A DNA stretch of 57,477 nt from an uncultured Gemmatimonadales bacterium (GCA_947259315.1 CAMYLR010000026.1:1-57477); one strand, 5' to 3'. Shown: positions 22,220-45,546, numbered from the stretch's first letter. Numbers and translations are program-made. The notes: a model not told the origin generated them from the letters alone.

Positions 22220-23533
22220 ATGGCCTTGGCCGCGGACCGCCTCGAGACCCTGCTCCCGGACCACAAACCGGCGTTGACCACCGCTCAGGCGAGGGCTGAA
22301 GCCGGACGCTGTCTCTTCTGCCATGATGCTCCTTGCATCGCGGCTTGTCCGACCGGAATCGACATCCCGCTGTTCATTAAACAGATCCATTCCAACAACG
22401 TCCTCGGCGCCGCACGAACGATCCTCGAGGCGAATGCGCTTGGGCACTCATGCGCGCGCGTGTGCCCGGTCGAAGTCCTGTGCGTGGGGGATTGCGTCTA
22501 CAATGTTAAAGGCGAGCCACCGATCATGATCGGCCGGCTTCAACGGTATGCCACGGATCCGGCCGTGCACGGTGGCATTCAGTTCTTTGAGGCCGGTTCG
22601 TCCACCGGTCGGTCGGTGGCGTGCGTCGGCGGGGGACCGGCATCGATCGCTTGTGCGCACGAGCTCGTCCGCATGGGGCACCGAGCGGTTGTATACGAGC
22701 GCAATCCGTGGCGCGGCGGGCTCAATACGGACGGCGTGGCGCCCTACAAGATGCAGGCGGAGGAAAGTCTGAAGGAGGTCGAGTACCTCTCGGCGATCGG
22801 GATCGAGTGGCGCTTGGATACGGCGGTCGGAGATGACGTGACGTGGGATGATCTCGAAGCCGAGTACGATGCGGTGTTTCTCGGCTTGGGTCTTGGTACC
22901 GACTCCGGGCTTGGCATCCCAGGTGAAGACCTTCCCGGGGTATGGGGCGCCACCCGCCTCATTCGGGCGATCAAGACCGGCGCCGGCTCGTTGCCCGATC
23001 CGGCGAGCCTGGGAGCGGCGGTAGTGGTCGGTGGCGGCAACACCGCCATCGATGCGGCTCGTGAGTTGTCATTGCTCGGTGTACCCGAGGTCATGGTCGC
23101 CTATCGCCGCGACCAGGATGCGATGCCGGCTTACTTGCACGAGCGCGGACACGCGGTCGAGGAGGGTGTGCGATTCGTCTTCCGGACACTGCCGCTGAGC
23201 TTCGAAGGCGATCGACGTGTCGAAGCGGTACGCCTGACGGCTCTCGATCACGACCTGGAGCCCACAGGCGAGCCCTACACCGTACCGGCGGACATAGTCG
23301 CCCTGGCGATCGGCCAGGCCCGTTTGATCGACTTGCTGGATCAGGTTGACAAACTCGACCACGACTGGGGCCGGGTGATCGTAGATCCCGATACTGGCCA
23401 GACGTCGAACCCCAAGTACTGGGCTGGTGGCGATCTCGCCAACGGTGGAGAAGAGGTCGTAAACGCGGCCGCTGAGGGGAAGCGCGCCGCATACGGGATC
23501 GATGGTTGGCTGCGGGAGAACGGAGGCAGATGA
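22220..23533 (+). CDS. preT: Dihydropyrimidine dehydrogenase, FAD/NAD(P)H subunit
   Basis: EAGRCLFCHDAPC..ACP, CARVCP..LC, GGGPA, GGGNTAID; adjacent to preA. Confidence 0.92.
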   Translation: MALAADRLETLLPDHKPALTTAQARAEAGRCLFCHDAPCIAACPTGIDIPLFIKQIHSNNVLGAARTILEANALGHSCARVCPVEVLCVGDCVYNVKGEPPIMIGRLQRYATDPAVHGGIQFFEAGSSTGRSVACVGGGPASIACAHELVRMGHRAVVYERNPWRGGLNTDGVAPYKMQAEESLKEVEYLSAIGIEWRLDTAVGDDVTWDDLEAEYDAVFLGLGLGTDSGLGIPGEDLPGVWGATRLIRAIKTGAGSLPDPASLGAAVVVGGGNTAIDAARELSLLGVPEVMVAYRRDQDAMPAYLHERGHAVEEGVRFVFRTLPLSFEGDRRVEAVRLTALDHDLEPTGEPYTVPADIVALAIGQARLIDLLDQVDKLDHDWGRVIVDPDTGQTSNPKYWAGGDLANGGEEVVNAAAEGKRAAYGIDGWLRENGGR

Positions 23534-24825
23534 TGATTCAGAGGAATGGCCGCACTGGCGAGCCGATCGATCTATCGATCGATTGCGCCGGGATCCGCTC
23601 GCCTAACCCGTTCTGGCTCGCCAGCGGACCACCGGCCAACAGTTCGGGGCAAGTAATGAGGGCGTTCGACATGGGTTGGGGCGGTGCGGTCTGGAAGACG
23701 CTCGGGGATCCGATCACGAACACGGCGTCTCGGTACGGCGCGATCCCGTACCAGGGTCGAAACGTGGCGGGATTGAACAATATCGAGCTGATTACTGATC
23801 GCCCGCTCGAGGTGAATCTCAAAGAGATCGCAGAGGTCAAGAAGAAGTACCCGAATCACGCGGTCGTCGTATCGCTGATGGTGGAAACCAAAGACGAGTG
23901 GCGAGACATCATTAAGCGCTGCGAGGACACCGGGTGTGACGGATTTGAGCTCAACTTTGGTTGCCCCCACGGGATGTGTGAGCGCGGCATGGGTTCGGCC
24001 GTGGGGCAGGAGCCCAAAGTGCTCGAGGAGATCGCCGGTTGGGTGATGGAATTCGCGTCGATTCCGGTGCTGGTAAAGCTGACGCCTAACATCACCGATG
24101 TCCTGTACCCGGCCATGGCCGCGCAGCGAGGCGGTGTCGACGGTGTCTCGCTCGTCAACACGTTCAAGAGCGTTATCGGGATCGACCACGACACGCTTAG
24201 CCCGATCCCGTCCGTCGGCGGAGAGGGAACGTCGGGTGGCTATTGCGGTCCGGCCATCAAGCCAATCGCTCTCCATATGGTAACGCGACTCGGAAAGGCG
24301 CCCGAGTTCCATCTGCCGATCTCGGGGGTCGGAGGCGTTCAGTCTTGGGAGGACGCACTCGACTTCCTGCTTCTTGGCGCGTCATCGATCCAGGTCTGCA
24401 CCGCGGCGATGCACTACGGCTTCAAGATTGTCGACGATATGATCTTGGGGCTCGAAGAGTGGATGCGCGAGAAGGGGTATTCGAGGATCGACGAGTTCGT
24501 CGGTAAGGCACTCCCGAACTACAAGGAGTGGGGCGACCTTAACCTGAACTTCAAGATCGTCGCGGAGATCGATCCCGGGACGTGCATCGAGTGCCAGCTG
24601 TGTTACGCGGCATGCGAGGACGGCGCCCATCAGTGCATCGAGCTGCCGAAGGGAACGCGTGTGCCACGAGTGATCGAAGAAGAGTGCGTCGGGTGCAACC
24701 TGTGTCAGATCGTTTGCCCCGTTGAAGGGTGTATCACGATGGTAGAGCGAGATACGGGTCTGCCGCGCGAGTCTTGGAACGAAAGGGTCGCGAAGGGGAC
24801 CGCCGGCGCGGGCTCTCTGCACTGA
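23530..24825 (+). CDS. preA: Dihydropyrimidine dehydrogenase, FMN subunit
   Basis: NPFWLAS, LNNIELI, ELNFGCPHGM, KLTPN, two C-terminal 4Fe-4S motifs. Confidence 0.95.
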   Translation: MMIQRNGRTGEPIDLSIDCAGIRSPNPFWLASGPPANSSGQVMRAFDMGWGGAVWKTLGDPITNTASRYGAIPYQGRNVAGLNNIELITDRPLEVNLKEIAEVKKKYPNHAVVVSLMVETKDEWRDIIKRCEDTGCDGFELNFGCPHGMCERGMGSAVGQEPKVLEEIAGWVMEFASIPVLVKLTPNITDVLYPAMAAQRGGVDGVSLVNTFKSVIGIDHDTLSPIPSVGGEGTSGGYCGPAIKPIALHMVTRLGKAPEFHLPISGVGGVQSWEDALDFLLLGASSIQVCTAAMHYGFKIVDDMILGLEEWMREKGYSRIDEFVGKALPNYKEWGDLNLNFKIVAEIDPGTCIECQLCYAACEDGAHQCIELPKGTRVPRVIEEECVGCNLCQIVCPVEGCITMVERDTGLPRESWNERVAKGTAGAGSLH

Positions 24826-25280
24826 CGGCGTCGTACCGCCACACACAAGTGGGTTGGGTGATCATCGGCGCGCTGGGTGGCGCCTTGATCCTAGCCTTGT
24901 GGTGGCTGGTCGCGACCAGAGAACAGTGGGTGCCAGGCGTCGTTTTCGTCGTGCCCGCAATGGTTGCGGCCATCCTTCTCCTCTCACTGTTCATTTTTCG
25001 AGTTATGACGATCGAGGTTGACTCGACCGAGCTTCGCTGGTGGTTCGGCGGGCGACTCTGGACGCACAGCGTTGCGATTGACGAGATCGAAGCGGTTGCG
25101 AGCGTTCAAACCCGGTTTTGGCACGGCTGGGGAATCCATCGGGTCAGCGGTGGTTGGCTTTACAACGTCTCGGGACGATCAGCAGTGGAGCTGCGTCTGC
25201 GCGGTGGCAAACTCTTGCGGTTGGGAACGGACGAGCCGGAACGGCTACTTAACGCAATACGGTTGGTCGCGCCGATCTGA
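24822..25280 (+). CDS. Hypothetical membrane protein, two TM helices plus PH-like domain (start uncertain)
   Basis: YRHTQVGW, two TM segments, GWGIH..WLYNVSG..LGTDEP. Confidence 0.65.
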   Translation: MTASYRHTQVGWVIIGALGGALILALWWLVATREQWVPGVVFVVPAMVAAILLLSLFIFRVMTIEVDSTELRWWFGGRLWTHSVAIDEIEAVASVQTRFWHGWGIHRVSGGWLYNVSGRSAVELRLRGGKLLRLGTDEPERLLNAIRLVAPI

Positions 25281-25289
25281 GACGCGCTA

Positions 25290-26312
25290 CTACGGGGTGA
25301 CCACCCAGCGAATCCCCTCGCCTTTGCGCATGCGATCAAAGCCGTCGTTGATCTCTGACAGCGGAACTGTACCGCTCACGATCGGATCGAGTTTTAGCCG
25401 CCCCGCGCGCACGAGATCGATGATCTCTGGGTAAAGACTGCCCCCGCAGCCCAGGCTACCGACGACCTCCAGCTCGTAAAACATGATCTTGGCCGCCGAG
25501 AGCGGGACGTCTTTGTGCGAGAAACCGATTACGCAAAGTCGACCGCCCCGACGCAGGAGATCAAAACCGAGCCGCATGGTGTCGGGTGTTCCGATCGCTT
25601 CAAAGGCGACATCGACTCCGCCGCCGGTCGCCTTCTTCACGTGTTTGTCGACGCGTTCCACACGATCGGGGTTGATCGTTTCCGCAGCGCCAAGAGTGCG
25701 CGCCAGTTCGAGTCGCTCATCGCTCAGGTCCACGGCGATCACATGCCCGCCAGCGAGCACCGCACACTGGACGACGTTCAGCCCGACGCCGCCGCAGCCG
25801 ACGACGGCTACCGTGTCACCGGGCCGCACCCGGCCACGATCCTTGACCGCATGATACGGTGTCGACACCGCATCCGCGATCACGCAAACGTGCTCCAACG
25901 AAAGCTCGTCAGGAACGGCGACGAGGTCGCTCGCCGGCAGCGCGATTCGCTCGGCGTACGCACCGTCGATGTGATTCCCCAGCATGACCATGCGGTCGCA
26001 GAGGCTTTCTCGTCCCTGACGACAGTACGAACACCGCCCACATGACAAGACCGCTGGGATCAAGACCCGGTCTCCGACCGCGAATTCAGTGACGTCTTCG
26101 CCTACGCCTGCAATCGTGCCGGCCGGTTCGTGGCCGAGAATGATCGGCGGCGACTTGAACGTTTTGACACCGTGATCGAGGTAATGGAGATCGGTGTGGC
26201 ACATGCCACAGCCAGCGACATCGACCAGCACCTCGCCCGAACCCGGTGATGGGTCGGGCACCTCGGTGATCTCGAGCGGCTGACCCGCTTTGTGGAAGAC
26301 GGCTGCCTTCAC
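25290..26312 (-). CDS. had: 6-hydroxycyclohex-1-ene-1-carbonyl-CoA dehydrogenase (zinc MDR family)
   Basis: GCGMCHTDLHY, GHE, CxxCxxC, VIADAVSTPY; last gene of the bcr operon. Confidence 0.85.
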   Translation of the reverse strand: MKAAVFHKAGQPLEITEVPDPSPGSGEVLVDVAGCGMCHTDLHYLDHGVKTFKSPPIILGHEPAGTIAGVGEDVTEFAVGDRVLIPAVLSCGRCSYCRQGRESLCDRMVMLGNHIDGAYAERIALPASDLVAVPDELSLEHVCVIADAVSTPYHAVKDRGRVRPGDTVAVVGCGGVGLNVVQCAVLAGGHVIAVDLSDERLELARTLGAAETINPDRVERVDKHVKKATGGGVDVAFEAIGTPDTMRLGFDLLRRGGRLCVIGFSHKDVPLSAAKIMFYELEVVGSLGCGGSLYPEIIDLVRAGRLKLDPIVSGTVPLSEINDGFDRMRKGEGIRWVVTP

Positions 26313-26317
26313 TTAGA

Positions 26318-26653
26318 TCACGGCTCCTTTCGGCGCTTGTCGCGCGTGTAGATCGTCACGAACTGACTCTCGGCAACGACCGCACAACCCTGGCAGTCGT
26401 CGAGCAGCTCTTCTGGCCTCACCGGGTCGGCACATACCTCGTACCCGAGCTCGCGGTAGAGCTCCAGCATTTCTTTGCTCCGAGCAGCATCGGTGATGAA
26501 TCGCCGCTCCCAGCCGGCGGCGATACGCTCCGGATCGGGCTCCAACTGAGCCTCGGACAGCATTCGGCGGGCCTCTCGTTCTACCAGCATCGATAGAGGC
26601 TTGATCGCGTCTTGCTGCTTGCCGGTAGTGCGGTCGGGGTTTGGATCGGACAT
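26318..26653 (-). CDS. Small hypothetical CxxC protein in the bcr operon
   Basis: 111 aa, GWERRF..ELYRELGYEV..CQGC..TIYTR; tightly spaced between bcrD and had. Confidence 0.75.
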   Translation of the reverse strand: MSDPNPDRTTGKQQDAIKPLSMLVEREARRMLSEAQLEPDPERIAAGWERRFITDAARSKEMLELYRELGYEVCADPVRPEELLDDCQGCAVVAESQFVTIYTRDKRRKEP

Positions 26654-26664
26654 CGTTGGTGCCT

Positions 26665-27498
26665 CTAGCTACCGGTCGCCTGGTACTCAGTCCCAGCGCC
26701 GGACGCGGCGAGTTTCTTGAGCCGCCGTTGGCCGAGCAACGCCGCGCCAAACGCGGATGTGAACTGCACGAGATCACCGGGCGGGACGTTCACGTCCGCG
26801 CCGAGCTTCTCGCTGATGACGTCGACCATGCGCCGGAAACGCAGTATGCCTCCGATCAGTGTGAACTCGGGCTCCATACGCACCCGCTTCATGAGCTGGA
26901 GTGACCTGTCGACCAGTGAAACGACAGCACCGTGCATGATATCCGCCGGGTCCATCCCCTCGGACAAGTGATTGATGACCTCCGATTCGGCAAAAACCGC
27001 GCACACGCCGGAGATCGGTACCGGCGTCTTGGATGTCTCCACTAATGGACCGATCTCCTGCGTTTCGTAGCCCATGTAACGGGCGGTTTTCTCCAAGAAA
27101 GCACCGGTTCCGGCGGCGCACTTGTCGTTCAAGCGGAACGACTTGACCTTCGCGCCGTCGCTCAAACGCGTGGCCTTCATCGTCTGGCCGCCGACATCGA
27201 GGATCGTCTGGGTTTCTGGGAACAGGAACGAGGCGCCTCGCGCAGCGGCCGTCAGGTCGGTCACATGGACGTCGCTGATTTGGGCCTGATGGCGTCCGAA
27301 CCCGGTCGCGATCACGTACGAAACGTCGGCCTTCTCGAGCCCCGCCTGATCGATGCTCTTCTCGTAAGCTCGCTCGGCGATCTCGGTGAGCTTGAATCCG
27401 GTTGGTTCCATCACGCGACCGACGATCTCGTTTACATCGTTCAAGATGACAGCCTTGGTGTACGTCGATCCGATATCGATGCCCGCCGTGTAGATCAT
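26665..27498 (-). CDS. bcrD: Benzoyl-CoA reductase ATP-binding subunit, BcrD-like
   Basis: [31 protein letters not shown]; fourth gene of C-B-A-D order. Confidence 0.8.
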
Positions 27499-28313
27499 GA
27501 CGTGTGCTCCATCGAGCTCGCAGGTGCTCGACTAGCCAAGATGTGATCGAGCGCGAAAAGCGCGGCCCCCATAGCTCCCATGAAATGCGACTCTTCGCTC
27601 ACGTTCACCGCGACACCCAACCTTTCGTTGAGCGTCTCGATCATCGCCACGTTGCGCGCCACCCCACCGGTAAATGTCACTTCGCTCTCGACCCCGACCC
27701 GACGCAGCAAGCCAGCCGAGCGCGCTCCGATCGACTCATGTACGCCTAGCAAGATGTCCTCGATCTTCTTGCCCTTTCCAAGCCACGAGAGGATCTCGGA
27801 CTCGGCGAACACGGTACACGTGGTGCTGATCTTCACCGCGCGTTGTCCGCGCAGCGCGGTGGGGCCCAGCTCGTCAAGCGGGATGTCGAGCGCAGCCGAG
27901 GCGGCGCCCAGAAACCGTCCGGTGCCGGCGGCGCATTTGTCGTTCATGCAGAAGTCCAGGATCTCGCCGGTCTCAGAGACCCGGATCGCCTTGGTATCCT
28001 GTCCTCCCATGTCAACGACGGTGCGAGTGCCCGGGAACATGTGAACCGCACCCCGGCCGTGGCAGCTGATTTCAGTCACTTGTGTGTTTCCAAACGTCAC
28101 CTTGTAGCGACCGTACCCCGTGCCAACGATGAACCCCACTTCCTCCTCGAGAAGGTCTGCATCGCGGAGCGCTTCCTGAAACGCGGTTTCGGCTGCTCGT
28201 GTGACGTTGGCGCCGGTATCCATCAGCGAGCGGCCGACGATGCGCCCAGCCTCGTCTATGATCACAGCCTTCGTCTGCGTGGAACCGACGTCAACTCCTG
28301 CTGCGTATGCCAT
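27495..28313 (-). CDS. bcrA: Benzoyl-CoA reductase ATP-binding subunit, short BcrA-like
   Basis: [43 protein letters not shown]. Confidence 0.8.
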
Positions 28314-28321
28314 CCAACCCT

Positions 28322-29641
28322 CTATTCTGGTTGAAGGGTTTCGCCCCGCTCGATGGACGCTCGCTTCTTGCGCGTCGCCAGGCCTTCAAAGAAGGCATCG
28401 ATCCGGTTCTTGAGCTGGGCCTCGGATACGACGCGTCGATCCATCATGTCCGATTCCAAAAACAGACTTGCCGTGTCCCGGCTTTCCATAAGCGCGCGCC
28501 GGTTGTCGGCCAGTCCCGTTGAGACCGTTCGGCAACTCTTGATCGGGTGGAATACGACCCCGTCTGCCTGGTAATCGTCGATCATCTCGCTCAGAACGAG
28601 GTCTTGGAAGAACATGCTGTCCATCGCGTTGCGGACGCTGATCAGCACCCCCTCCGCCAGACTGTCCAGTGGCCGCTCGAGGTCGTATTGGAAGCCGAGG
28701 TTCGAACCGCCGGACGCAAACCACAAATAGGTCGAATTGACGAACGTTCCACCCCACTCGGTGAACAGCTCGTTGAATCGCCGGAAGATCGGGTAACAAG
28801 GCACGCCCACAAACAGCAGTCGGTACTGTTCATCCGATAGCGTTCCGATTCCATTGGCGGCCTTGTACTCCATCTCCTCGGCCAGATCCGTGAAGTAGGT
28901 GGCGCCGGCCTCCGAACCGCGGAACCCGTTGGCGACACCGAGGTAGATCGTGCCTTCGGTGAGTGCGTTGAAAACGGCTGGGCAGGTCTGATTGAGCTCC
29001 AGGATGCGCTTCCACGATCGGTTCATCGTGTTGGCGTGACCCATCGTCTCGCGCAGTCGGTCGATGTCGAACGGGATTCCGGTCTGTTCCTCGCAGACGG
29101 TGATCAGCTCCTGGATCTGGTCGGCGACGTACCGGCGATCGTTCTCGAAGTCAGGGTCGCCCGGCCACGTCTGACCGCCGGCCGCCCGGGTGCCTGGGAT
29201 GTCCAGCGTGAAAACACGGGTGTCGTGCATTCGCTCCCAGATCTCGGCCCACTTGATGTAGGTGTTGCAGGCGTTGGTGCAAATCGCGATGGCAGGCTTG
29301 GGGATGCGTCCCATCGGATGTTCACCGCCGCGGAGTTGCACCGCGACGTCGGCTTTGACGTACCCGCAGATGTCGGGCGAGTAACCGTAGTCTTCGGCCT
29401 CGCTCAGGTACTCGTGGGCGACGCGCCGAACCGCTGTTTGAAGGGAGTTGATCTCGGGGAAGACGATCGGGAGATCAAACACTCTAAGCAGCTCCGTCAG
29501 GCTACCCATCACGAAGACATAAGCGGCGCCGGCGTCGTTCTCTGCAACCTGTCCCAGCTCTTCGAACCACTGGCGAAAGAGTTGCGCGCCATCTTGATTG
29601 CCGCGTCCTACGAGCGAGGTGTCGGTGGCCATCTGGGACAT
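28322..29641 (-). CDS. bcrB: Benzoyl-CoA reductase subunit B
   Basis: [36 protein letters not shown]; 2-hydroxyacyl-CoA dehydratase fold. Confidence 0.85.
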
Positions 29642-29653
29642 GATGATCCTCGG

Positions 29654-30835
29654 TTAGTCGAAGAGGAGGTTCTCTAGAAAGGTCTCGAGTTGGATCTCCA
29701 GGCTGTCAAAACTCGTCATGCTCTCCTCGAACTCGCTTACGAAGTACGGAATGTTCTCCTGATCCAGTGTCCGTATGTATGCGACCTGCTCCTCGAGGCC
29801 GGGTTCGCACATCTTGGCGGCCAGCACGATCGCCGCCTCGGCCTTCGCATCCTTGATGCGTCGCAACAACATCTTTTCCTTGGGTTTTCGCAGGTCATGC
29901 TGAACCGGGCTGTGGGAAGATTTCTCGATGTAGCAATCGGCCAGGCTCAACAGCGGATTGCCGTTCACAGGGACATCTTCGGTTAGCCACCGCAGGCCGA
30001 TTAGCAGATCATCGTCAACGACGTAGCATGATCTGCTGATCGTGCGGACCAGATCGATCGGTAGCTGTTCGCAGAATCCACCCTCTACGACGACCCGGAT
30101 GCGATCTCGGGGCTGGGCTTCGCGCTCCTCGATGAGCGGCAGCAATTTGTGTAGCAACGCATTGTGTTCTTCTCGCGGCAAGAGCCCACCCAGCGCGACG
30201 AGGACATAGGCTTCGTCTGCGGACAATAACCATGGCCGTTCGCGCTTCACCGCGTACAACGCCCGCAACAGCGCTCTGTTCTCGTTGAACACTTCGATCG
30301 AACGACACAGATCGTCGTCGGTGATCTCTCTGCCAGCGATGGCTTCGATCTCTCGCATGAGCCGGTCGTATTCCGCGCGCAGGTAGTCGACAGCATGGTT
30401 TGAATTGGCGTTCTGAGGGAGATAGAGAATCTGGCACGGGTACTCGAAGTTGCGGCCCCAGATCCCAGCCAGATTTCTGGCTGCGTCACAGATCGGATGG
30501 GTGACGAACATGTCGAGCTCGATGCGTTGACTCAGCGCCAACTCGAGCGAGGTTTTGATGATCGAGCACAAGTAGGAGCCAAACCGCGAGTCCGCCTGCG
30601 TCGGCTCGACCGGCGCGCCTCGCACCTTGAAGGGCAGCATTCCGGCGGCGTGGGCGATCTCCTCTGGGAAGTAAACCTGAAAGTGACCGATCACTTTTCC
30701 ACCGTTGTCACGCCACTTGTGCACGGTCGGAAAATCGGTGTCCTCGAGTAACTCCTCGCACGATCGCAGAATCTCTTCTAGAGGTTTGTCGTTCCAGTTC
30801 GGGAGCACCTTTGGCAGCACTTGTGAGCTCGTCAT
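29654..30835 (-). CDS. bcrC: Benzoyl-CoA reductase subunit C
   Basis: [39 protein letters not shown]; ATGA overlap with dch. Confidence 0.85.
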
Positions 30836-31596
30836 CGGTGGCTCCACGTGGGCTGGCGCTTCTCTTGAAACGCGCGCAGGCCTTCGATCGCGTCGGCTGT
30901 ATTCATGAGCTCCTCGACGTAGATAGCTCCCACGTCGCGGAACGCCGCCGCGCGGCGCTGCGTGCTGCCGTTCCGAAGGGCGCGCTTGGTGATCTCGAGT
31001 GCGGCTCGACTGTGTTGCGCGATCCGCTGCGCGGTGGCTGTGGCTTCATCCTCGAGCTCGCTGGGGGGCACGATCTTTCGGATTAGACCGTGCTCCAGGG
31101 CCTCGACCGCTTCGATCACGGCTCCCGACAGCACCAGGTCCGCGGCCAACCCGGAGTCGCAACGCTCGGGCAGCAGGACACACGCCGCTGGCGGGAAGAC
31201 GCCGAGCACGATTTCCGGTTGTCCGAACGACGCGTCCTCGGCGGCGATGACGATGTCGGCTGCTTGCACGACCTCGAAGCCCCCGCCTAGGCACTTGCCC
31301 TGAACCGCGGCCACGGTCGGGAGCGGGAACCCGTCGATGGCGGCGACCGTTTCGAGAAACTCGGGAATCATCTGGCGATAGAGCGGCGGTAAGTGCTCGC
31401 CAACGTCCGCACCGGCAGAGAAGTGCTTGCCGTGAGCTGACACGAGCAGCACCCGTACCGCCGAATTCGCTTCGAAGTCTCTAATTGCTGCGCGCACTTC
31501 GGCGAGCATGTCCTGAGTCAAGATGTTGAGCGGCGGATGGTTCAAGACGAGCCGGCCAAGACCGCCGTTGACACGGGTCTCGATGGTGGCAGCCAT
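30832..31596 (-). CDS. dch: Cyclohexa-1,5-diene-1-carbonyl-CoA hydratase
   Basis: Crotonase motifs [35 protein letters not shown]. Confidence 0.88.
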
Positions 31597-33319: not shown

Positions 33320-33352
33320 TCAAATTTTGAACGATACGTCAAATTTTGTCAA
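33319..33352 (-). promoter_or_regulatory. Promoter of the tetR-bcr operon with two candidate operators
   Basis: Minus strand TTGACA-N17-CAAAAT; palindrome TTCAAATTTTGAA 33319-33331 and repeat TCAAATTTTG 33339-33348. Confidence 0.65.
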
Positions 33353-33479
33353 GTCAGGAGAAACCCGTCTTCGACCACGGAGTGCGAAGCTTTTAACCAT
33401 ATATAGCCATTATTAACCTAGTAACTGCCGATCTCTGGTAAGATTGCGGATCGCCCCCTGTCGGGTTAGAACATCGGCC

Positions 33480-37512: not shown

Positions 37513-37691
37513 CGAAGCAGGTCCTCCTTTCTGACCGAGAAGCTGAAACTAAGTGGTGCCTGGGCGCATGAAAGTGCCGGACGCGCTCCGCGTTCAGCGT
37601 GCCCGCCCGCCAACGCCGTCGGTCGCACGACGCGCAGGCGTCAGCTATGATTAAAGGCATACAACCGGCACGATACCCGCATGGAGGCATC

Positions 37692-38567
37692 ATGGCGAGA
37701 GTGGTGAAGGGTGGTCTGATCCAGGCGGCGATCCCTGACGGGGATGCCAGCCGACCGATCGACGAGATCAGACAATCGATGATCGACAAACACGTGGTCC
37801 TGCTGGCCGAGGCCGCCGAGCGGGGTGCGCAGGTCGTCTGTCTACAGGAGCTCTTCTATGGGCCGTACTTCTGCGCCGATCAGGACGCGAAGTGGTATCA
37901 GCTCACCGAACAGGTCCCTGACGGGCCGACGTGCCGACAGTTCGGAGACTTGGCACGCGAGCACGGTGTGGTACTTGTGCTCCCGGTCTATGAAGAGGAG
38001 ATCGCTGGGGTCTATTACAACACCGCGGCGGTGTATGACGCCGACGGGTCGTACTTGGGCAAGTACCGCAAACACCATATTCCGCACTGCGCGCCCGGAT
38101 TCTGGGAGAAGTTTTTCTTCAAGCCAGGGAACCTCGGATACCCGGTGTTCGAGACCGCATTCGGAAACGTCGGGGTGTACATCTGCTACGATCGCCACTT
38201 TCCCGAGGGCGCGCGGATCCTCGGTTTGAACGGTGCGGAGATCGTCTTCAACCCATCGGCTACGGTGGCCGGGCTCTCGGAGTACCTGTGGGAGCTCGAG
38301 CAGCCGGCCCACGCGGTGGCGAACGGCTACTTCATCGGCGCGATCAACCGCGTCGGCCACGAGAACCCCTGGGACATCGGTGAGTTCTATGGCAAGTCGT
38401 ACTTCGCCGATCCGCGCGGGGAGATCATCGCTCAGGCGCCGCGCGACCGTGACGCGGTGGTCGTCGCTGACCTCGACCTCGACATGATCGAGGAAGTCCG
38501 TCAGACGTGGCAGTTTTTCCGGGATCGGCGACCTGAAACGTACGACGAGATCGCCGCGCTGCTGTGA
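37692..38567 (+). CDS. Nitrilase-family beta-ureidopropionase
   Basis: QELFYGPYFC, YRKHHIP, ICYDRHFPE triad, WQFFRDRRP; pyrimidine cluster context. Confidence 0.88.
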   Translation: MARVVKGGLIQAAIPDGDASRPIDEIRQSMIDKHVVLLAEAAERGAQVVCLQELFYGPYFCADQDAKWYQLTEQVPDGPTCRQFGDLAREHGVVLVLPVYEEEIAGVYYNTAAVYDADGSYLGKYRKHHIPHCAPGFWEKFFFKPGNLGYPVFETAFGNVGVYICYDRHFPEGARILGLNGAEIVFNPSATVAGLSEYLWELEQPAHAVANGYFIGAINRVGHENPWDIGEFYGKSYFADPRGEIIAQAPRDRDAVVVADLDLDMIEEVRQTWQFFRDRRPETYDEIAALL

Positions 38568-38592
38568 CGATCGTCGACGAAAGCGAGCAGAG

Positions 38593-39915
38593 ATGACGGA
38601 TCCGAACAACGGCGGATCGATCGCGACCGCCAACCGGGCAGCCGAGATCAACGCTGGCCACGATCGCTATCTGTGGGACGCGGTCATGCGCTACTACGAA
38701 ACGCCGCTGCCGCTGGCTCGTGGGCGCGGCCAGCACTTGTACGACTACGACGGCAACGAGTATCTCGATTTCTTTGGCGGGATCTTGACCGTCCCGGTTG
38801 GGCACTGTCACCCCACCGTGACGCAGGCGATCCAGCAGCAGGCGGAAACGCTCGTTCATACGTCGACCCTCTACCCGACCGGGCCGATCGTAGAGCTGGC
38901 GGAGAAGATCGCTTCGCTCACCCCTGGGGATCTGTCCAAGACGTTCTTCACCAACAGCGGCACCGAGGCCGACGAGACGGCGATCATGCTGGCCAAGGCG
39001 GCGACCGGCAATCAAGCCGTGATCGCGCTGCGCCACGCCTACGCGGGGCGCTCGATGTTGGCGGTAACGCTGACCGCGCACGCGCCTTGGCGCAGCGTCG
39101 ACTACATCTCCGGCATCAAGCACGCGCTGGCCCCCTACTGCTATCGCTGTCCGCTCAAGCTCGAATACCCGTCGTGCGGGGTAGCGTGCGCCGAGGATCT
39201 GGAGGAGCTGATCAAGACCACCACGCCGGGGCGGGTCGCGTGCATGATCGCTGAGCCGATCATGGGTGTCGGTGGCTTTGTCACGCCGCCCACGGAGTAC
39301 TTTCAGATCGCGGCCGAGATCGTGCGCCGCCACGAAGGGCTGCTGATCGCGGACGAAGTCCAGACCGGTTGGGGCCGAACCGGCACCAAGATGTGGGGAA
39401 TCGAACAGTATGGCGTCACGCCGGACGTCATGACGATGGCTAAGGGCGTTGCCAACGGCATGCCGATGGGCGTGACCGTTACGACGCCCGACATCGCCGC
39501 CAAGTGGGAGGGCCTGACGCTGTCCACGTTTGGCGGCAACCCGCTGGCGTGCGCTGCGTCCCGTGCGACGATCCAGGTGATCGAAGAGGACAACCTGGCC
39601 GAGAACGCGGAGACTCAAGGTCGGCGGTTGCGAGACGGTTTGGAGAAGCTTCAGGAGAAGCATGCGTTGATCGGCGATGTGCGTGGCATGGGACTCATGC
39701 AGGGGATCGAGATGGTCGCTGATCGTCGGACCAAGGAACCGGCGGTGTCGGAGATCATGCAGCTCATGGAAGAGACGAAGAAACGCGGTCTCTTGATCGG
39801 CAAGGGTGGGCTCTACGGCAACGTTGTCCGGGTCGCGCCGTGTCTCAACATCGGTGCCGACGATGTTGATCGAGCGGTTGAGATCCTCGATGACAGCTTC
39901 GCGGCTATCGGGTAG
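38593..39915 (+). CDS. Class III PLP aminotransferase (beta-alanine/AGXT2-like)
   Basis: YLDFFGG, NSGTEA, DEVQTG, MAKG, STFGGNP. Confidence 0.88.
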   Translation: MTDPNNGGSIATANRAAEINAGHDRYLWDAVMRYYETPLPLARGRGQHLYDYDGNEYLDFFGGILTVPVGHCHPTVTQAIQQQAETLVHTSTLYPTGPIVELAEKIASLTPGDLSKTFFTNSGTEADETAIMLAKAATGNQAVIALRHAYAGRSMLAVTLTAHAPWRSVDYISGIKHALAPYCYRCPLKLEYPSCGVACAEDLEELIKTTTPGRVACMIAEPIMGVGGFVTPPTEYFQIAAEIVRRHEGLLIADEVQTGWGRTGTKMWGIEQYGVTPDVMTMAKGVANGMPMGVTVTTPDIAAKWEGLTLSTFGGNPLACAASRATIQVIEEDNLAENAETQGRRLRDGLEKLQEKHALIGDVRGMGLMQGIEMVADRRTKEPAVSEIMQLMEETKKRGLLIGKGGLYGNVVRVAPCLNIGADDVDRAVEILDDSFAAIG

Positions 39916-39928
39916 AAGGGAGACCGCA

Positions 39929-40297
39929 TTGAGCCCCCGGACGAGTGCGTTACTTCTGACGGTTCCAGTCTTCGCGTTGTACTTCTATCTGCTCGGCGAT
40001 TTCGAGCCACCGCTGCCGATCGCCGACCGCGTGGCGGCCTGGATGTTCTACGCGATCCTGGCGGTGATGTTGATCGGCATGTTGGCGGTCCGTCTAGAGC
40101 CCCGGGGGATGTCGTACGTGTTCATGTTGGCGGCGCTGCTGCAGACCTTTTCCATGTTCCTGATGCTCCTTCTCGAGTGGCAAGCGCTGGAGACGGTCGT
40201 CTATCTCAACGTGTTGCTCGTTCTGAGCCTGTTACTGGTCTCGTGGCGTTTCCGAAACGTCGCCAACTTCGAAGCTGGGGAGGCGGAGTCGTCATGA
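39929..40297 (+). CDS. Hypothetical four-TM membrane protein
   Basis: AAGGGAG RBS then TTG; hydrophobic segments; ATGA overlap with next gene. Confidence 0.65.
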   Translation: MSPRTSALLLTVPVFALYFYLLGDFEPPLPIADRVAAWMFYAILAVMLIGMLAVRLEPRGMSYVFMLAALLQTFSMFLMLLLEWQALETVVYLNVLLVLSLLLVSWRFRNVANFEAGEAESS

Positions 40298-41781
40298 GTA
40301 CGAGACGCCGGTACCGGAACTACATCGACGGTGAGTGGCAGGAAACCGAAACCGGTAACTGGGCCCCGAACATCAATCCTGCCAATACTAAAGATGTCAT
40401 CGGCGAGTTGCCGCTATCGTCGAAAGGTGAGACCGAAATGGCGATTACGGCAGCTGAGCGCGCGCTGCCGGGGTGGCGAGCTATACCCGCGCCGGAACGT
40501 GGTCGATTGATCTCGCGCGCCCACCGCTTGATGACCGAGCGGACCGATGAGCTGGCTCGGTCGCTGACTCGCGAAGAGGGCAAGATCCTGCCCGAGGCCA
40601 AAGGTGAGGTCCAGAAAACGCTCAACATCCTCGAGTTTATGGCTGGCGAGGGGATGCGGCTCGATGGCGATACGATGCCGTCGGAGTTGGCCAATACGTT
40701 TGCCTACACGGTACGTGAACCGATCGGCGTCGTCGGCGCGATCACGCCATGGAACTTTCCGGTTGCGATTCCGGGTTGGAAGATCGCCCCGGCGCTGGTG
40801 GCGGGGAACACGGTCGTTTTCAAGCCGGCCTCGTTGACGCCCGAGACGGCGGAGCTGGTGGTCGGAATGTTCGTCGAGGCTGGCTTGCCAAGAGGCGTAC
40901 TGAACCTGGTCTACGGCAGCGGCTCGATGGTGGGGCAGACGATCGTCGAGGATCCGCGCGTCAAGGCGCTTTCTTTTACCGGCTCCAACGAGATCGGTGC
41001 CGGGTTGTACGTCGACGGAGCGCACCGCTTGAAAAAGGTGCAGTGCGAGATGGGCGGGAAGAACCCGGTCCTGGTGCTCGAGGACGCCGATCTTGAGCTG
41101 GCGGTCGAAGGAACGGTCCAAGGTGCCTTTGGCTCGACCGGTCAGCGGTGTACAGCGACGTCGCGCGCGGTGGTAGTTGACGATATCGCTGACGATTTCG
41201 TCGGGCGCGTGGTCGAATACGCCTCGGGAATCGTTGTCGGCGACGGTTTGACTGCCGAGACCGGTATGGGTCCATCGGTCGATCAGTCCCAGTACGACAC
41301 CGTGCTCGAGTACATCGAGATCGGTAAGCAGGAGGGCGCCGAATGTTTGGCCGGCGGCGAACCTCTCACCGGTCCTGAGCACGCCGATGGATACTTCGTG
41401 CAGCCAACGGTGTTCGATCGGGTCGACCCCGACAGCAAGCTCGCACAAGAGGAGATCTTCGGGCCCGTTCTCGCGGTCATCCGCGTTCCCGACTTCGAAA
41501 CCGGTCTAGAGGTTTGCAATAACACTCGGTATGGTCTCACGTCGTCGATCTACACCGCCGACAACTCGCGCGCGTTCCGTTTTATCCGCGGTATCGAGAC
41601 CGGTATCACGCACGTGAACTCACCCACGATGGGCGGCGAAGCCCAGCTGCCTTTTGGTGGCACGAAAGCGACTGGCGTGGGAATGCGCGAGATGGGGAAG
41701 ACCGCGATCGACTTCTACAGCGAGTGGAAAACCGTGTACATCGACTACACGGGCGAGAAGCGCGAGAGCCTTTTCTACTGA
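40294..41781 (+). CDS. NAD(P)-dependent aldehyde dehydrogenase, non-CoA-acylating type
   Basis: TPWNFP, FTGS, CEMGGKNP, GQRCTA, EEIFGP. Confidence 0.92.
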   Translation: MSTRRRYRNYIDGEWQETETGNWAPNINPANTKDVIGELPLSSKGETEMAITAAERALPGWRAIPAPERGRLISRAHRLMTERTDELARSLTREEGKILPEAKGEVQKTLNILEFMAGEGMRLDGDTMPSELANTFAYTVREPIGVVGAITPWNFPVAIPGWKIAPALVAGNTVVFKPASLTPETAELVVGMFVEAGLPRGVLNLVYGSGSMVGQTIVEDPRVKALSFTGSNEIGAGLYVDGAHRLKKVQCEMGGKNPVLVLEDADLELAVEGTVQGAFGSTGQRCTATSRAVVVDDIADDFVGRVVEYASGIVVGDGLTAETGMGPSVDQSQYDTVLEYIEIGKQEGAECLAGGEPLTGPEHADGYFVQPTVFDRVDPDSKLAQEEIFGPVLAVIRVPDFETGLEVCNNTRYGLTSSIYTADNSRAFRFIRGIETGITHVNSPTMGGEAQLPFGGTKATGVGMREMGKTAIDFYSEWKTVYIDYTGEKRESLFY

Positions 41782-41782
41782 G

Positions 41783-42145
41783 ATGAACGTCAAGCGCGTC
41801 GCGGACGTTGTCTCACAGCCCGTGGACGCTGGCACCGGCACCCGCCGCCAGGTCCTTATCGGTCCCGACGAGGCACCAAATTTTGCGCTGCGCCGGTTTA
41901 TCATGGAGCCCGGCGGCGGGATGCCGAAGCACACCAACACCGTCGAGCACGAGCAATACGTGCTGGCCGGCCGGGCCCGAGTCGGTATCGGCGATGACGT
42001 CGTTGACGTTGAACCGGGAAGCGTGGTCTACATTCCGGCCGGAACGCCTCACTGGTACGCGGTGAAGGGAGACGAGCAGTTCGAGTTCTTGTGTGCTGTC
42101 CCGAATCGTCCCGACCATATCGAGATCATCGACGAAACCGCCTAG
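41783..42145 (+). CDS. Cupin domain protein
   Basis: PKHTNTVEHEQYVL..G, YIPAGTPHWY. Confidence 0.85.
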   Translation: MNVKRVADVVSQPVDAGTGTRRQVLIGPDEAPNFALRRFIMEPGGGMPKHTNTVEHEQYVLAGRARVGIGDDVVDVEPGSVVYIPAGTPHWYAVKGDEQFEFLCAVPNRPDHIEIIDETA

Positions 42146-42149
42146 TCGG

Positions 42150-43121
42150 TTGATCGCACTGAACGAGATCCGAGCGGCGGCCGACCGAATCGCCGGACGG
42201 ATACACCGCACGCCGATCGTGACCAGCACGACGCTCGATCAGCGGGTCGGCGTCCGGCTTCATCTCAAATGTGAGTCGTTTCAGAAGACCGGCTCGTTCA
42301 AGCCGCGGGGAGCGCTCAACAAGATCGAGTCGCTAGGCCCCGACGAGCGGAGTGCGGGCCTCATCACAACGTCGGCTGGCAACCACGCTCAAGGGGTCGC
42401 ATGGGCAGCGCGAGAGGTCGGTGCGCCTTGCACCGTGGTCATGCCTACCGACGCACCACAATCGAAGATCAATGCGGTGATCGAGTACGGCGCGGACGTG
42501 ATCCTCGAAGCCGATCGGACGATCCTCTTCGAGCGCGTCGAGGAGGAACGCCAGGCACGTGGCGCGACGTTTGTGCACCCGTTTGACGATCCGGTCGTGT
42601 TGGCCGGGGCGGGAACGACCGGACTCGAGATCGTCGAAGACGTCCCCGACGTCGACATGGTCGTCGTGCCGGTCGGCGGTGGAGGATTGCTCGGCGGTAT
42701 CGCCTCGGCGGTGAAGGCGATTCGACCTGAGGTGCGCGTAGTTGCGGTCGAGCTTGAGGCCGGGCCCGGCCTGGGGCCCGCGCTCGAGGCCGGGCGACCC
42801 GTGACTGTCCCACGGCCCCAGCCAACGTTGGCCGACGGCATGACGCCACCTTTCGTCGGCCAACTACCGCTCGAAATCGCGCAGCACGCGGTGGACGAGG
42901 TCGTCGTCGTGAACGAGGCCGAAATCGCCGCTGCGATGGAGCTCCTGTTGACGCGCTGCAAGTTGCTCGTCGAGGGGTCGGGTGCAGCGGCGACCGCGGC
43001 GATTCTAGCGGGTCGGATCGTGCTGCGTGACGGGGCCCGAGTCGTATCCGTAGTATCGGGTGGCAACGTGGACCTCGCGACTCTGGCCAAGACGCTTGAA
43101 AAGCGGGGGCAGCTGACATGA
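42150..43121 (+). CDS. PLP-dependent serine/threonine dehydratase family enzyme
   Basis: KCESFQKTGSFKPRGA, SAGNHAQG, PVGGGGL, SGGN; no ACT domain. Confidence 0.9.
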   Translation: MIALNEIRAAADRIAGRIHRTPIVTSTTLDQRVGVRLHLKCESFQKTGSFKPRGALNKIESLGPDERSAGLITTSAGNHAQGVAWAAREVGAPCTVVMPTDAPQSKINAVIEYGADVILEADRTILFERVEEERQARGATFVHPFDDPVVLAGAGTTGLEIVEDVPDVDMVVVPVGGGGLLGGIASAVKAIRPEVRVVAVELEAGPGLGPALEAGRPVTVPRPQPTLADGMTPPFVGQLPLEIAQHAVDEVVVVNEAEIAAAMELLLTRCKLLVEGSGAAATAAILAGRIVLRDGARVVSVVSGGNVDLATLAKTLEKRGQLT

Positions 43122-44101
43122 AGGTCCTGGCGCTAAGTGCAAGCGACGTCGAAGCGCTGCTCCCAATAGACGAGTGTATCGACGTCGTCGGCGACGCGTT
43201 GGCGGATCTGTCGCGAGAAGAGTCGATCAATCCGTTGCGCTCGATGGTCCGGTTTCCGAGCGGTGACGGGTTGCTGGGACTGATGCCAGCGGTGACGAAG
43301 TCACCACCGGTCAGCGGCATAAAGATCCTGACCGTGATGCCGGGCAACGAAGGGACCCCGTACGATTCGCACCAAGGGGTGGTCATGCTGTTCGAGATGG
43401 AGCACGGTCGGCCAGTGGCGATCGTCGATGCAAGCGCGATCACCGCCATTCGGACGGCGGCGGCGAGCGGTCTCGCGACCCGTCTCCTGGCGCGTGAAGA
43501 CGCGAGTCGGTTGGCGATCCTGGGCTCCGGTGTTCAGGCCCGTAGCCATCTCGACGCGATGCGAGCGGTCCGGCCGGTCACGACGGCAGTGGTTTGCAGT
43601 CGATCGGGCGACCGCGCTCGCGCGTTCGCCGAGCACCACTCCGAGCGCTGTGGCATCTCGATCGATGTCGCGGTGTCGGTTCAAGAGGCGATCGAAGGAG
43701 CAGACTTGATCTGTACGACGACCTCGGCACGGGAACCGATCGTCTGTGGCGATTGGTTGGAGCCTGGCACGCACATCAACGCCGTCGGCGCTTGCTTCCC
43801 GACCGTTCGCGAGTTTGACACCCGGGCCATCGTTAACTCCCGGCTGTTCGTCGACCGGCGCGAGTCGGCGCTGAACGAGTCCGGCGACTTTTTGATCCCC
43901 AAAGCCGAGGGAGCGATCGACGACGACCACATCGTGGGCGAGATCGGAGAACTCGTTTTGGGTCGCATCGAGGGTCGAACCGCTCCGGAGCAGATTACCC
44001 TGTTCAAGTCACTCGGTGTGGCGGTCGAGGATCTGGCCTCCGCCCATCACGTTTATCAAAAGGCGCTCGAAACTGGCCACGGGTGCGAGATCGATCTCTG
44101 A
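43118..44101 (+). CDS. Ornithine cyclodeaminase/mu-crystallin family (imine reductase-like)
   Basis: TAIRTAAAS, GSGVQARSH, HINAVGA, FKSLGVAVED. Confidence 0.9.
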   Translation: MKVLALSASDVEALLPIDECIDVVGDALADLSREESINPLRSMVRFPSGDGLLGLMPAVTKSPPVSGIKILTVMPGNEGTPYDSHQGVVMLFEMEHGRPVAIVDASAITAIRTAAASGLATRLLAREDASRLAILGSGVQARSHLDAMRAVRPVTTAVVCSRSGDRARAFAEHHSERCGISIDVAVSVQEAIEGADLICTTTSAREPIVCGDWLEPGTHINAVGACFPTVREFDTRAIVNSRLFVDRRESALNESGDFLIPKAEGAIDDDHIVGEIGELVLGRIEGRTAPEQITLFKSLGVAVEDLASAHHVYQKALETGHGCEIDL

Positions 44102-44157
44102 TATAATGGACTAGACGGCGCGAGAAGCGCGTCGCCGATCACGGACTCTGTTGGAGG

Positions 44158-45546
44158 ATGAATACCATGGCGATCCTGATACAGAACGCCGAAGTCGTCA
44201 GCGCTACCGAGACAAAACGCACCAATGTGCGAGTCGAGCACGAGAAGATCGCCGCCGTTGGCGAGGATGTGGTCGCCGAGTCCGGCGACGAGATCGTCGA
44301 CGGCTCTGATCAGCTACTCATACCGGGTGGAGTTGATCCACACGTTCATATGGCGTTGCCATTTATGGGTACGGTTTCGATCGACGACTTCGAGAGCGGC
44401 ACGATCGCCGGGATCATGGGCGGTACGACGAGTCTGATCGACTTCGCGATTCCTGCCAAAGGCGAGTCGCTTCTAGAGACACTCGATGTCTGGTACGAGA
44501 AGTCGGCCGGAAAAGCCGCTCACGACTACACGTTTCACATGGCGGTCGTCGATTGGGACGAGCGAATCGCCGAAGAGATTCCCAAGGTCGTCAGCGATCA
44601 CGGCATTACCTCGTTCAAGATCTTCATGGCTTATAAAGGCGTCTTCGACGTCAACGACGAACAGATCTTCCATATCCTCGAGGCGACCAAGGCGGCGGGT
44701 GGGTTCGTCAACGTGCACGCCGTGAACGGCGATATCCAGCTCATGCTGGCGGATCGGTTCGCCGAGCAGGGAAACACCGACACCCGTTATCACGCGCTCG
44801 CTCAACCTCCTCGGGCCGAGGGTGAAGCGACAGGTCGCGTGATCGACCTCGGCGCGATCGTCGAGCAGCAGGTCTACATCGTGCACGTCACGTGTGAGCC
44901 CGCCGTCGAGCGGATCGCGGCGGCACGTGCACGCGGCGAGCCGGTGTGGGGCGAGACGTGCCCCCAGTACTTGCTACTGGATGACTCGCTGTACGACCTC
45001 CCCGACTTTGAGGGTGCCAAGTACGTGTTGTCGCCGCCGCTGCGAAAGAAAAAGGACCAGGACGTGTTGTGGAGGGCGCTGGCCGACAACGAGATCTCGG
45101 TCATGGGCACCGACCACTGTGCGTTTACGTTTAGCGAGCAGAAGCAGATGGGCCGGGACGATTTTCGGTTGATACCGAACGGTTTCATGGGGCTCCAGGA
45201 GCGCTTGCCGCTGCTGTACACGCACGGCGTCACCAAAGGCAGGATCAGCGCCAATCGTTGGGTCGAGCTGTGCTCTACGAACCCGGCCAAGATCTTTGGT
45301 CTCTACCCACGCAAGGGGACGATCGAGGTTGGCTCAGACGCGGATCTCGTGCTGTGGGATCCAGCGGCGACCGACACGATCTCGGCAGAGACGCACTTCT
45401 CGCGCTGCGATTACAACGTGTACGAAGGGTTCGAAACGATGGGTGGTCCAACCAAGGTGTGGGTCCGCGGCGAGCTCGCAGCGTCGGAGGGCGAGTTCGT
45501 CGGCACCGTCGGCCGCGGCGAGTTCGTCAAGCGTCCGCCACGTTAG
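44158..45546 (+). CDS. hydA: Dihydropyrimidinase
   Basis: PGGVDPHVH, SFKIFMAYK, ETCPQY, TDHCAF, NPAKIFG; TATAAT at 44102 and GGAGG RBS. Confidence 0.95.
   Translation: MNTMAILIQNAEVVSATETKRTNVRVEHEKIAAVGEDVVAESGDEIVDGSDQLLIPGGVDPHVHMALPFMGTVSIDDFESGTIAGIMGGTTSLIDFAIPAKGESLLETLDVWYEKSAGKAAHDYTFHMAVVDWDERIAEEIPKVVSDHGITSFKIFMAYKGVFDVNDEQIFHILEATKAAGGFVNVHAVNGDIQLMLADRFAEQGNTDTRYHALAQPPRAEGEATGRVIDLGAIVEQQVYIVHVTCEPAVERIAAARARGEPVWGETCPQYLLLDDSLYDLPDFEGAKYVLSPPLRKKKDQDVLWRALADNEISVMGTDHCAFTFSEQKQMGRDDFRLIPNGFMGLQERLPLLYTHGVTKGRISANRWVELCSTNPAKIFGLYPRKGTIEVGSDADLVLWDPAATDTISAETHFSRCDYNVYEGFETMGGPTKVWVRGELAASEGEFVGTVGRGEFVKRPPR

Follow-up and report, generated by a model that had tools for sequence, protein, structure and literature searches.

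A nine-gene aryl-CoA reductase cassette probably inserted into an older operon for reductive pyrimidine degradation in a genus of uncultured Gemmatimonadota

The DNA analyzed here (the window) is a stretch of 57,477 nucleotides from an uncultured Gemmatimonadales bacterium (GCA_947259315.1 CAMYLR010000026.1:1-57477), namely contig C26 of a 33-contig, 2.4-Mb metagenome-assembled genome (MAG). It carries an operon of nine genes on the minus strand, running from 33319 to 25290 in the order tetR-oah-dch-bcrC-bcrB-bcrA-bcrD-X-had and referred to below as the cassette, the bcr genes of which are predicted to encode a class I benzoyl-CoA reductase (BCR). This cassette is flanked by the preTA genes on one side and the NCS1 to hydA genes on the other, both on the plus strand and both belonging to the reductive degradation of pyrimidines. 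The nested arrangement is restricted to a single genus and represents a derived state. We consider it quite likely that two independent units are involved, a self-regulated cassette having been inserted into an older pyrimidine operon in the ancestor of this genus, and that the adjacency of the two units has no pathway meaning.

Nesting of the cassette in the pyrimidine operon

The order preTA-[cassette]-NCS1-CoA-transferase-amidase-aminotransferase is also present in two other genomes of the same genus (G006 and G005), and the right junction was found in three more (G003, G004, and G007), the contigs of which stop inside bcrA. BcrB was identified in six of the seven other genomes of the genus, the one without a match being G001, which is 87% complete. 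Outside the genus, six preA loci of the same family were compared (G029, G013, G028, G011, G030, and G021): in all six, NCS1 comes after preT and preA in the same orientation and without any cassette, and the genes encoding the CoA-transferase, amidase, aminotransferase, aldehyde dehydrogenase (ALDH), and HydA come next wherever the contig continues. The gap between preA and NCS1 in these relatives measures about 280-1000 nt, and the small genes in it differ, G021 and G011 having a DUF1905 gene at this place and genus g7 having unrelated open reading frames (ORFs). Since different small genes occupy this gap across the relatives, the junction between preA and NCS1 can be regarded as a variable slot.

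The polarity of the change was assessed on a tree of the concatenated PreT, PreA, NCS1, amidase, and aminotransferase sequences (2212 columns, careful search), which was rooted on G060, a genome from another family. The topology obtained was (g7,(g5,(g10,g1))), with a support of 100/100 for the grouping of g10 with g1 and 88/90 for the next node. As the genus is nested among cassette-free relatives, a single gain on its stem accounts for the distribution observed, versus at least three clean losses in the opposite case. Both the cassette and the pyrimidine cluster are present in G029 (same family) and in G060, where they are located on separate contigs.

A quick tree of 90 BcrB rows groups the genus in a clade with 100% support, which lies inside a 45-row clade consisting mostly of Gemmatimonadota, a position suggesting that the cassette was acquired from another Gemmatimonadota lineage. 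The nested state might instead be old in the family, the other genera having lost or relocated the cassette. The fact that two genomes of the same family, G014 and G029, own a cassette is in line with this idea, as is the approximately unbiased (AU) test (39 rows), in which a tree placing the BcrB copies of the family in a single clade was kept (log-likelihood difference 29.3, p 0.153), the group tested having been chosen after the tree was seen. The copies of G014 and G029 are, however, only 64-66% identical to that of the genus, are located elsewhere in the genome, and branch at the base in the quick tree, apart from the genus; the two sets of genes are also unlinked in the outgroup G060, and the genus lies inside cassette-free genera on the pyrimidine-protein tree, with the losses that this entails. 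An ancestral linkage is therefore quite improbable. Given the p value of the AU test, both a lateral acquisition and a relocation within the lineage are compatible with the data.

The neighborhood of the cassette was surveyed at 78 BcrB loci outside the genus (the best 80 minus two belonging to the genus), with flanks of 3-21 kb and a tblastn E-value of 1e-15. The preA, NCS1, CoA-transferase, amidase, aminotransferase, and hydA genes were found in the flanks of none of these 78 loci. The sole matches with queries of the pyrimidine set were those of PreT with other GltD-like genes (30-33%, six loci), one match of ALDH (33%), and one of a pyridoxal phosphate (PLP) enzyme (31%). The exact order tetR-oah-dch-bcrCBAD-had of the window occurs in nine of the 78 loci. 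Three distant loci (L016, L017, and L018) were scanned with Pfam, the flanking genes being identified by family scans of all the long frames of this high-GC DNA: the flanks contain genes for peptidases, a TonB-dependent receptor, FeoB, MatE, and beta-oxidation, and no recurrent ligase or transporter was detected in them.

These data bear on the two explanations put forward in an earlier note on this DNA, which suggested either an old insertion or a co-selected ring-reduction island. In our reading of such an island, the cassette and the pyrimidine genes would cooperate on aromatic and N-heterocyclic acids: NCS1 would take up the substrate of the reductase, the CoA-transferase would activate it, and the 160-bp region between tetR and NCS1 would coordinate the two operons. 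The retention of the arrangement in every genome of the genus in which the region is assembled, the divergence of tetR and NCS1 from one region, and the location of the CoA-transferase gene just after NCS1 are features that such an island would display. On the other side, NCS1 and the CoA-transferase are fixed in the pyrimidine operon of the cassette-free relatives, the cassette loci elsewhere have no such neighbors, the two sets are separate in G029 and G060, and the predicted operator is borne by the cassette, without any second copy in the window or the genome. What the earlier note had named as speaking against an island, i.e., preTA located beside NCS1 with the bcr genes elsewhere or absent, is indeed the situation encountered in the relatives, and the island is in our opinion quite improbable. 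The idea of an old insertion is supported: the cassette is missing between preA and NCS1 in all the relatives compared, the genus is nested on the tree, the junctions are found genus-wide, and the base composition is the same on both sides of the borders. The G+C (GC) content amounts to 0.613 in the cassette and 0.630 in the pyrimidine genes, and that of the third codon positions (GC3) to 0.762 and 0.771, respectively.

The possibility that two organisms were joined by a faulty assembly or binning at about 25,285 and 33,400 was also considered, the window being taken from a MAG and its left border being bridged by none of the listed contigs from public runs (Logan). The junctions do not seem to be an assembly artefact, because both borders recur in G006 and G005, and the right border in G003, G004, and G007, which makes five other genomes of the genus; in addition, the right border is bridged by contigs of two public runs, and the GC and GC3 values do not differ across the borders. 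A chimera is thus extremely improbable.

As the earlier note had stated, no integrase, insertion sequence, or att repeat was found at the borders. No flanking direct or inverted repeats were detected beyond matches of chance length, and the tRNA nearest to the cassette is located at 11518. The features by which genomic islands are recognized (integrase, transposase, repeats, tRNA target, and deviant composition) are therefore not those of this cassette. The border ORF on the left side has no Pfam match, nor any tblastn match in the loci compared, and the left border varies within the genus: in G005, the high-scoring segment pairs of preA and had end 13 nt apart.

The divergent region between tetR and NCS1

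The 160-bp length attributed to the divergent region in the earlier note is exact (33320-33479, between the tetR ATG at 33319 and the NCS1 ATG at 33480). A 13-bp palindrome, TTCAAAWTTTGAA, abuts the tetR ATG. The cassette has a sigma-70-like promoter here, in which 17 nt separate the -35 box TTGACA from the -10 box CAAAAT, and the latter lies within TTCAAAWTTTGAA. This layout is also seen in front of tetR in the cassettes of other lineages. With up to two mismatches and at a distance of 6-15 nt upstream of the predicted start of tetR, the palindrome is found in 17 of 23 non-redundant tetR loci (six of them from the window's genus), as against 34 of 4600 random 180-nt segments of the same loci, and TTGAC precedes the palindrome by about 21 nt in 17 of the 23. 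There is a single copy of the palindrome in the window, and a single copy in the 2.4-Mb genome at up to one mismatch. The promoter and the predicted palindromic TetR operator belong to the cassette and travel with it.

The closest PDB matches of the TetR protein are a Thermus TetR (3vpr, 112 bits), FadR (8sv6, 66 bits), and KstR2 (4w1u, 63 bits), followed by DarR and, weakly, MbdR (4uds, 38 bits), and its C-terminal domain is of the type present in acyl-CoA-binding regulators. TetR is predicted to repress the cassette, including its own gene, and to be released by an acyl-CoA.

The conservation of the rest of the 160-bp region is limited to the genus. An AT-rich, partly palindromic element at 33393-33420, between the TetR operator and NCS1, is kept in the genus only and is a candidate either for the new promoter of NCS1 or for the site of a regulator. 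Among the public runs listed, no RNA dataset containing the region was found.

The scenario that we propose is as follows. The first unit is a conserved, co-directional pyrimidine/beta-alanine operon, preT-preA-NCS1-CoA-transferase-amidase-aminotransferase-ALDH-...-hydA, and the second unit, the opposite-strand operon tetR-oah-dch-bcrCBAD-X-had, would have been placed into its variable preA/NCS1 gap. The cassette would encode an ATP-driven aryl-CoA (benzoyl-CoA-type) reductase of the MBR-type class I, along with three further enzymes which would hydrate, oxidize, and hydrolytically open the reduced ring; its acyl-CoA-sensing TetR would repress the cassette's own promoter at the palindrome over the -10 box, and the aryl-CoA substrate and reduced ferredoxin would be supplied by unlinked genes. 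The rest of the 160-bp region would provide a new promoter for the NCS1-hydA half, which was cut off from preTA.

Several points weigh against this scenario. Neither insertion scars nor repeats nor mobility genes are seen at the borders. The root of the pyrimidine-protein tree is the weak point of the polarity argument, since it depends on a single outgroup whose branch is long (2.2 changes per column): if the tree were rooted on the stem of the genus, a gain and a loss would be equally parsimonious. The AU test keeps a tree with a single family clade. The expression of NCS1 is presumed to be independent of TetR, with an NCS1 promoter only 100-160 bp away. The only aryl-CoA ligase above the cut-off in the genome belongs to a tryptophan/anthranilate-type cluster, which blurs the source of benzoyl-CoA. 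Lastly, the bcr, dch, had, and oah products score below the equivalog cut-offs, so the substrate is a presumed one.

An inserted cassette may also have been co-opted afterwards, the X-bearing MBR-like reductase having as its substrate a heteroaromatic acid, or a substituted aromatic one, taken up by NCS1 and activated by the CoA-transferase, with the 160-bp region linking the expression of NCS1-hydA to the sensing of aryl-CoA by TetR; this we regard as very improbable. In the case of an insertion without pathway meaning, the locus calls for caution in annotation: an adjoining catabolic operon, even one sharing a divergent intergenic region, need not imply a joint pathway, and the comparison of synteny would here point to nothing more than the insertion of a cassette into a slot that varies.

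Gene content, pyrimidine operon, and genome context

The genes were identified by scanning Pfam and NCBIfam profiles, the NCBIfam matches being judged by the curated equivalog cut-offs (Table 1). All the genes named in the earlier note were found to be present. Five genes lying inside the span were absent from its list: those encoding the CoA-transferase, the cyclase-like protein, ALDH, the PLP dehydratase-like protein, and the OCD-family protein. All the junctions in the cassette are overlaps or gaps of at most 12 nt, and the dch ATG and the oah stop codon have one base in common.

Table 1. Coordinates, strand, and best profile matches of the features in the region studied (positions counted from the first nucleotide of the window).
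Feature	Position	Strand	Assignment and matches
preT	22151-23533	+	GltD-like NAD(P)-binding Fe-S flavoprotein, putative dihydropyrimidine dehydrogenase subunit; Pfam Fer4_20 ("DPD domain II"), Pyr_redox_2
preA	23506-24825	+	NAD-dependent dihydropyrimidine dehydrogenase subunit; NF006183, 631 bits (cut-off 335)
border ORF	24852-25280	+	About 142 aa, hydrophobic N-terminus, left border
had	25290-26312	-	Zinc alcohol dehydrogenase-type 6-hydroxycyclohex-1-ene-1-carbonyl-CoA dehydrogenase-like; top NCBIfam match TIGR03201, 257 bits (cut-off 339)
X	26318-26653	-	111 aa, invariant CxxC; no known family
bcrD	26665-27498	-	Predicted ATPase (electron-activating) subunit; PF01869, 181 bits; TIGR02261, 140 bits (cut-off 313)
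bcrA	27495-28313	-	Predicted ATPase (electron-activating) subunit; PF01869, 206 bits; TIGR02259, 209 bits (cut-off 578)
bcrB	28322-29641	-	MbdO-like catalytic subunit; TIGR02260, 195 bits (cut-off 487)
bcrC	29654-30847	-	MbdN-like second HGD-D subunit; TIGR02263, 257 bits (cut-off 421)
dch	30832-31596	-	Dienoyl-CoA hydratase-like crotonase; TIGR03189, 201 bits (cut-off 292.5)
oah	31596-32678	-	6-Oxocyclohex-1-ene-1-carbonyl-CoA hydrolase-like crotonase; TIGR03200, 211 bits (cut-off 464)
tetR	32660-33319	-	Predicted TetR repressor of the acyl-CoA-sensor type, opening the cassette; TetR_N, TetR_C_24
cassette promoter with operator	33319-33352	-	Predicted
NCS1	33480-35243	+	Nucleobase/hydantoin-type transporter family; PF02133, 363 bits
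family III CoA-transferase	35185-36423	+	PF02515, 452 bits
cyclase-like gene	36400-37512	-	PF00211, 38 bits
nitrilase-superfamily amidase	37599-38567	+	Beta-ureidopropionase candidate; PF00795, 217 bits; under NCBIfam cut-offs
class III aminotransferase	38593-39915	+	Candidate for beta-alanine transamination; PF00202, 347 bits
ALDH	40177-41781	+	PF00171, 558 bits
PLP dehydratase-like gene	42093-43121	+	Pfam scan
OCD-family gene	43118-44101	+	Pfam scan
hydA	44158-45546	+	Dihydropyrimidinase; TIGR02033, 576 bits (cut-off 393)

In the pyrimidine operon, PreA and HydA reach the equivalog level and their partners were recognized by their Pfam domains only; together they qualify as a reductive pyrimidine cluster. 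PreT scores under every NCBIfam cut-off and its start is uncertain (22220 in the earlier note); preT is located upstream of preA in all the relatives. The known reductive route involves PreTA, dihydropyrimidinase, beta-ureidopropionase, and a beta-alanine aminotransferase, and would be completed here by the amidase, the aminotransferase, and ALDH. The operon of the window's family differs from this route in having a family III CoA-transferase gene as well, and in the genus the cassette interrupts this operon. The CoA-transferase gene follows NCS1 in five of the six cassette-free relatives, the contig of the sixth stopping in NCS1, and forms a constant part of the pyrimidine operon, not of the cassette. 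The top matches of ALDH are non-acylating types (NF042993, 588 bits, cut-off 770), and its score with the methylmalonate-semialdehyde dehydrogenase profile TIGR01722 is 358 bits (cut-off 448.5). The fact that the CoA-transferase is fixed in the operon and that ALDH is closest to non-acylating types suggests that malonate semialdehyde might be converted into malonate and then malonyl-CoA, rather than by a CoA-acylating dehydrogenase. The opposite-strand cyclase-domain gene between the CoA-transferase and amidase genes represents a further small insertion in this operon: a gap of equal size is present in G003, G004, and G005, and is absent in G006 and most of the relatives.

As regards the rest of the genome, a single aryl-CoA ligase exceeds the cut-off of TIGR02262 (507 bits, cut-off 375); it is encoded at locus L117 (G000:C4:6390-16092), beside tryptophan 2,3-dioxygenase, enoyl-CoA hydratase, and acyl-CoA dehydrogenase genes and a flavoenzyme gene of the salicylyl-CoA 5-hydroxylase/oxidoreductase type (NF006101, 1147 bits, cut-off 1078). 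Because of its location in this tryptophan/anthranilate-type cluster, the ligase may serve anthranilate-type acids. The locus looks like an aerobic anthranilate/aryl-CoA hybrid pathway, of which the cassette could be the oxygen-free branch. A 2-oxoacid:acceptor oxidoreductase alpha subunit (533 bits, cut-off 483) could contribute to the reduction of ferredoxin, and a clade II NosZ (875 bits, cut-off 625) may provide an anoxic electron sink; no NarG was found above the cut-off in the genome. One run (X2), the label of which is sediment metagenome, contains near-identical contigs (16 pieces at 99% identity or more). Judging from its genes, the organism may be a facultative anaerobe with an ATP-driven reductase.

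Distribution of the cassette, protein X, and comparison with known reductases

At an E-value of 0.001 or less, 3977 relatives of BcrB were detected among the candidates searched; the 120 best ones listed are 76-100% identical, and several of their sources are named Gemmatimonadales or Anaerolineae. Taking one genome per species, a BcrB relative is encoded by 577 stretches, the best 80 of which belong to Gemmatimonadota, Acidobacteriota, and Chloroflexota, plus one each from Acidimicrobiia, Planctomycetota, and Kiloniellaceae. The cassette is common in the public MAGs of the first three phyla. The earlier note's description of the lineage as one not classically linked to BCR therefore holds for cultured organisms, but not for public MAGs. 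The present case is a further example of an MBR-like branch of ATP-driven ring reductases, with its own repressor, a putative operator, and a conserved small CxxC partner, that is widely distributed among the uncultured Gemmatimonadota, Acidobacteriota, and Chloroflexota living in soils and sediments.

In five Gemmatimonadota loci (L036, L039, L040, L041, and L055), a second, very distant BCR/HAD-like set immediately precedes the main bcrCBAD genes. Compared with the proteins of the window, the identity is 26-29% for BcrC, 24% for BcrB (none in L055), and 37-44% for the two ATPases, and a GltD/PreT-like gene (30-33%) is found alongside this second set.

Gene X, which had been listed in the earlier note, is a real gene, but it is the 111-amino-acid frame given in Table 1 that is correct: the longest ORF over this stretch (26313-26777) was rejected, as it is out of frame and has an Arg/Ala-rich nonsense translation. 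X follows bcrD in 56 loci from several phyla, among the best 80 of the 577 BcrB stretches, and was not matched in the Pyrinomonadaceae/Blastocatellia-type cassette loci, their long flanks notwithstanding. The CxxC motif and the residues G47, W48, R51, E61, Y66, E72, and Y102 are invariant. X does not belong to any Pfam family, and the ESM Atlas gave only clusters of "hypothetical protein"; its AlphaFold2 model (27-row alignment) has a mean pLDDT of 70 and no Foldseek match in the PDB at an E-value of 0.001 or less. X may act in this clade of reductases as a fifth component or as a maturation factor.

The architecture of the class I enzymes was recognized in four adjacent genes, with two matches to PF06050 (204 and 210 bits) and two to PF01869 (181 and 206 bits). 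In Fuchs et al. (2025; PMC11971306), class I is divided into the BCR, MBR, and BZD types. Among the solved structures, the top match of BcrB is the MbdO subunit of 3-methylbenzoyl-CoA reductase MbdONQP (9g87_A, 515 bits, residues 8-427) and that of BcrC is MbdN (9g87_B, 546 bits, residues 13-397), the identity of these large subunits amounting to roughly 60-65% as estimated by eye from the printed alignments, whereas the matches with BzdO and BzdN are far weaker (90 and 94 bits). All four subunits miss the cut-offs of the Thauera/Rhodopseudomonas BcrCBAD equivalogs (TIGR02259-02263) by a wide margin. On account of these scores, the reductase can be assigned to the MBR-type class I benzoyl-CoA reductases, the boundary of this type being drawn without a curated MBR model. 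TIGR03189, TIGR03201, and TIGR03200 are the top matches of the dch, had, and oah products, yet the equivalog level is not reached; these proteins might act like Dch, Had, and Oah.

The BcrB residues C92, C125, and C370 align with Cys residues of MbdO, and C125 and C370 also with Cys residues of BzdO; all three are unchanged in 12 relatives. In BzdO, the ligands of the catalytic [4Fe-4S] cluster are Cys95, Cys128, and Cys380, according to Fuchs et al. (2025; PMC11971306). By alignment, BcrB therefore has the three cysteines of the catalytic [4Fe-4S] cluster of a substrate-binding subunit. The second large subunit of class I enzymes contains six Cys residues binding a double-cubane [8Fe-9S] cluster, and six Cys residues of BcrC, which are candidates for such ligands, align with Cys residues of MbdN in the printed alignment.

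As for the ATPase genes, bcrD (27104-27138) and bcrA (27919-27953) have a 35-nt stretch in common (89% identity). The contigs of G003, G004, and G007 stop inside bcrA, and four public runs have loose ends at 27947/27948 (27908-27948). The conserved ATPase motif of bcrA and bcrD seems to break metagenome assemblies.

Compared with the pathway of Thauera aromatica and Rhodopseudomonas palustris (BcrCBAD or BadDEFG with Dch, Had, and Oah), the cassette has the same C-B-A-D order of the subunits and the same three ring-processing families as top matches, but every score is below the equivalog cut-off and, unlike the Thauera/Rhodopseudomonas-type set, it does not include a ferredoxin gene. With BzdNOPQ (PDB 8s02), it has the enzyme superfamily in common, and the Cys-Cys-Cys pattern of [4Fe-4S] ligation, as given in PMC11971306, is retained; the position of BzdO His131 is occupied by Tyr in the BcrB of the window and by Phe in MbdO in the printed alignments. 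In the same paper, the BCR and MBR types are described as permanent tetramers, unlike the BZD type (PMC11971306). The nearest solved relative of both large subunits is MbdO/MbdN (PDB 9g87, 9gai, 9gal, and 9gba), and the literature search did not locate any paper on the MbdO/MbdN structures or the substrate range of the MBR type, to which the earlier note ascribes the reduction of heteroaromatic CoA esters. The mbd genes are accompanied by the TetR-family regulator MbdR, just as the cassette is by its tetR. The clade of the window is separate from Mbd, occurs in Gemmatimonadota, Acidobacteriota, and Chloroflexota, and is distinguished by the conserved fifth gene X.

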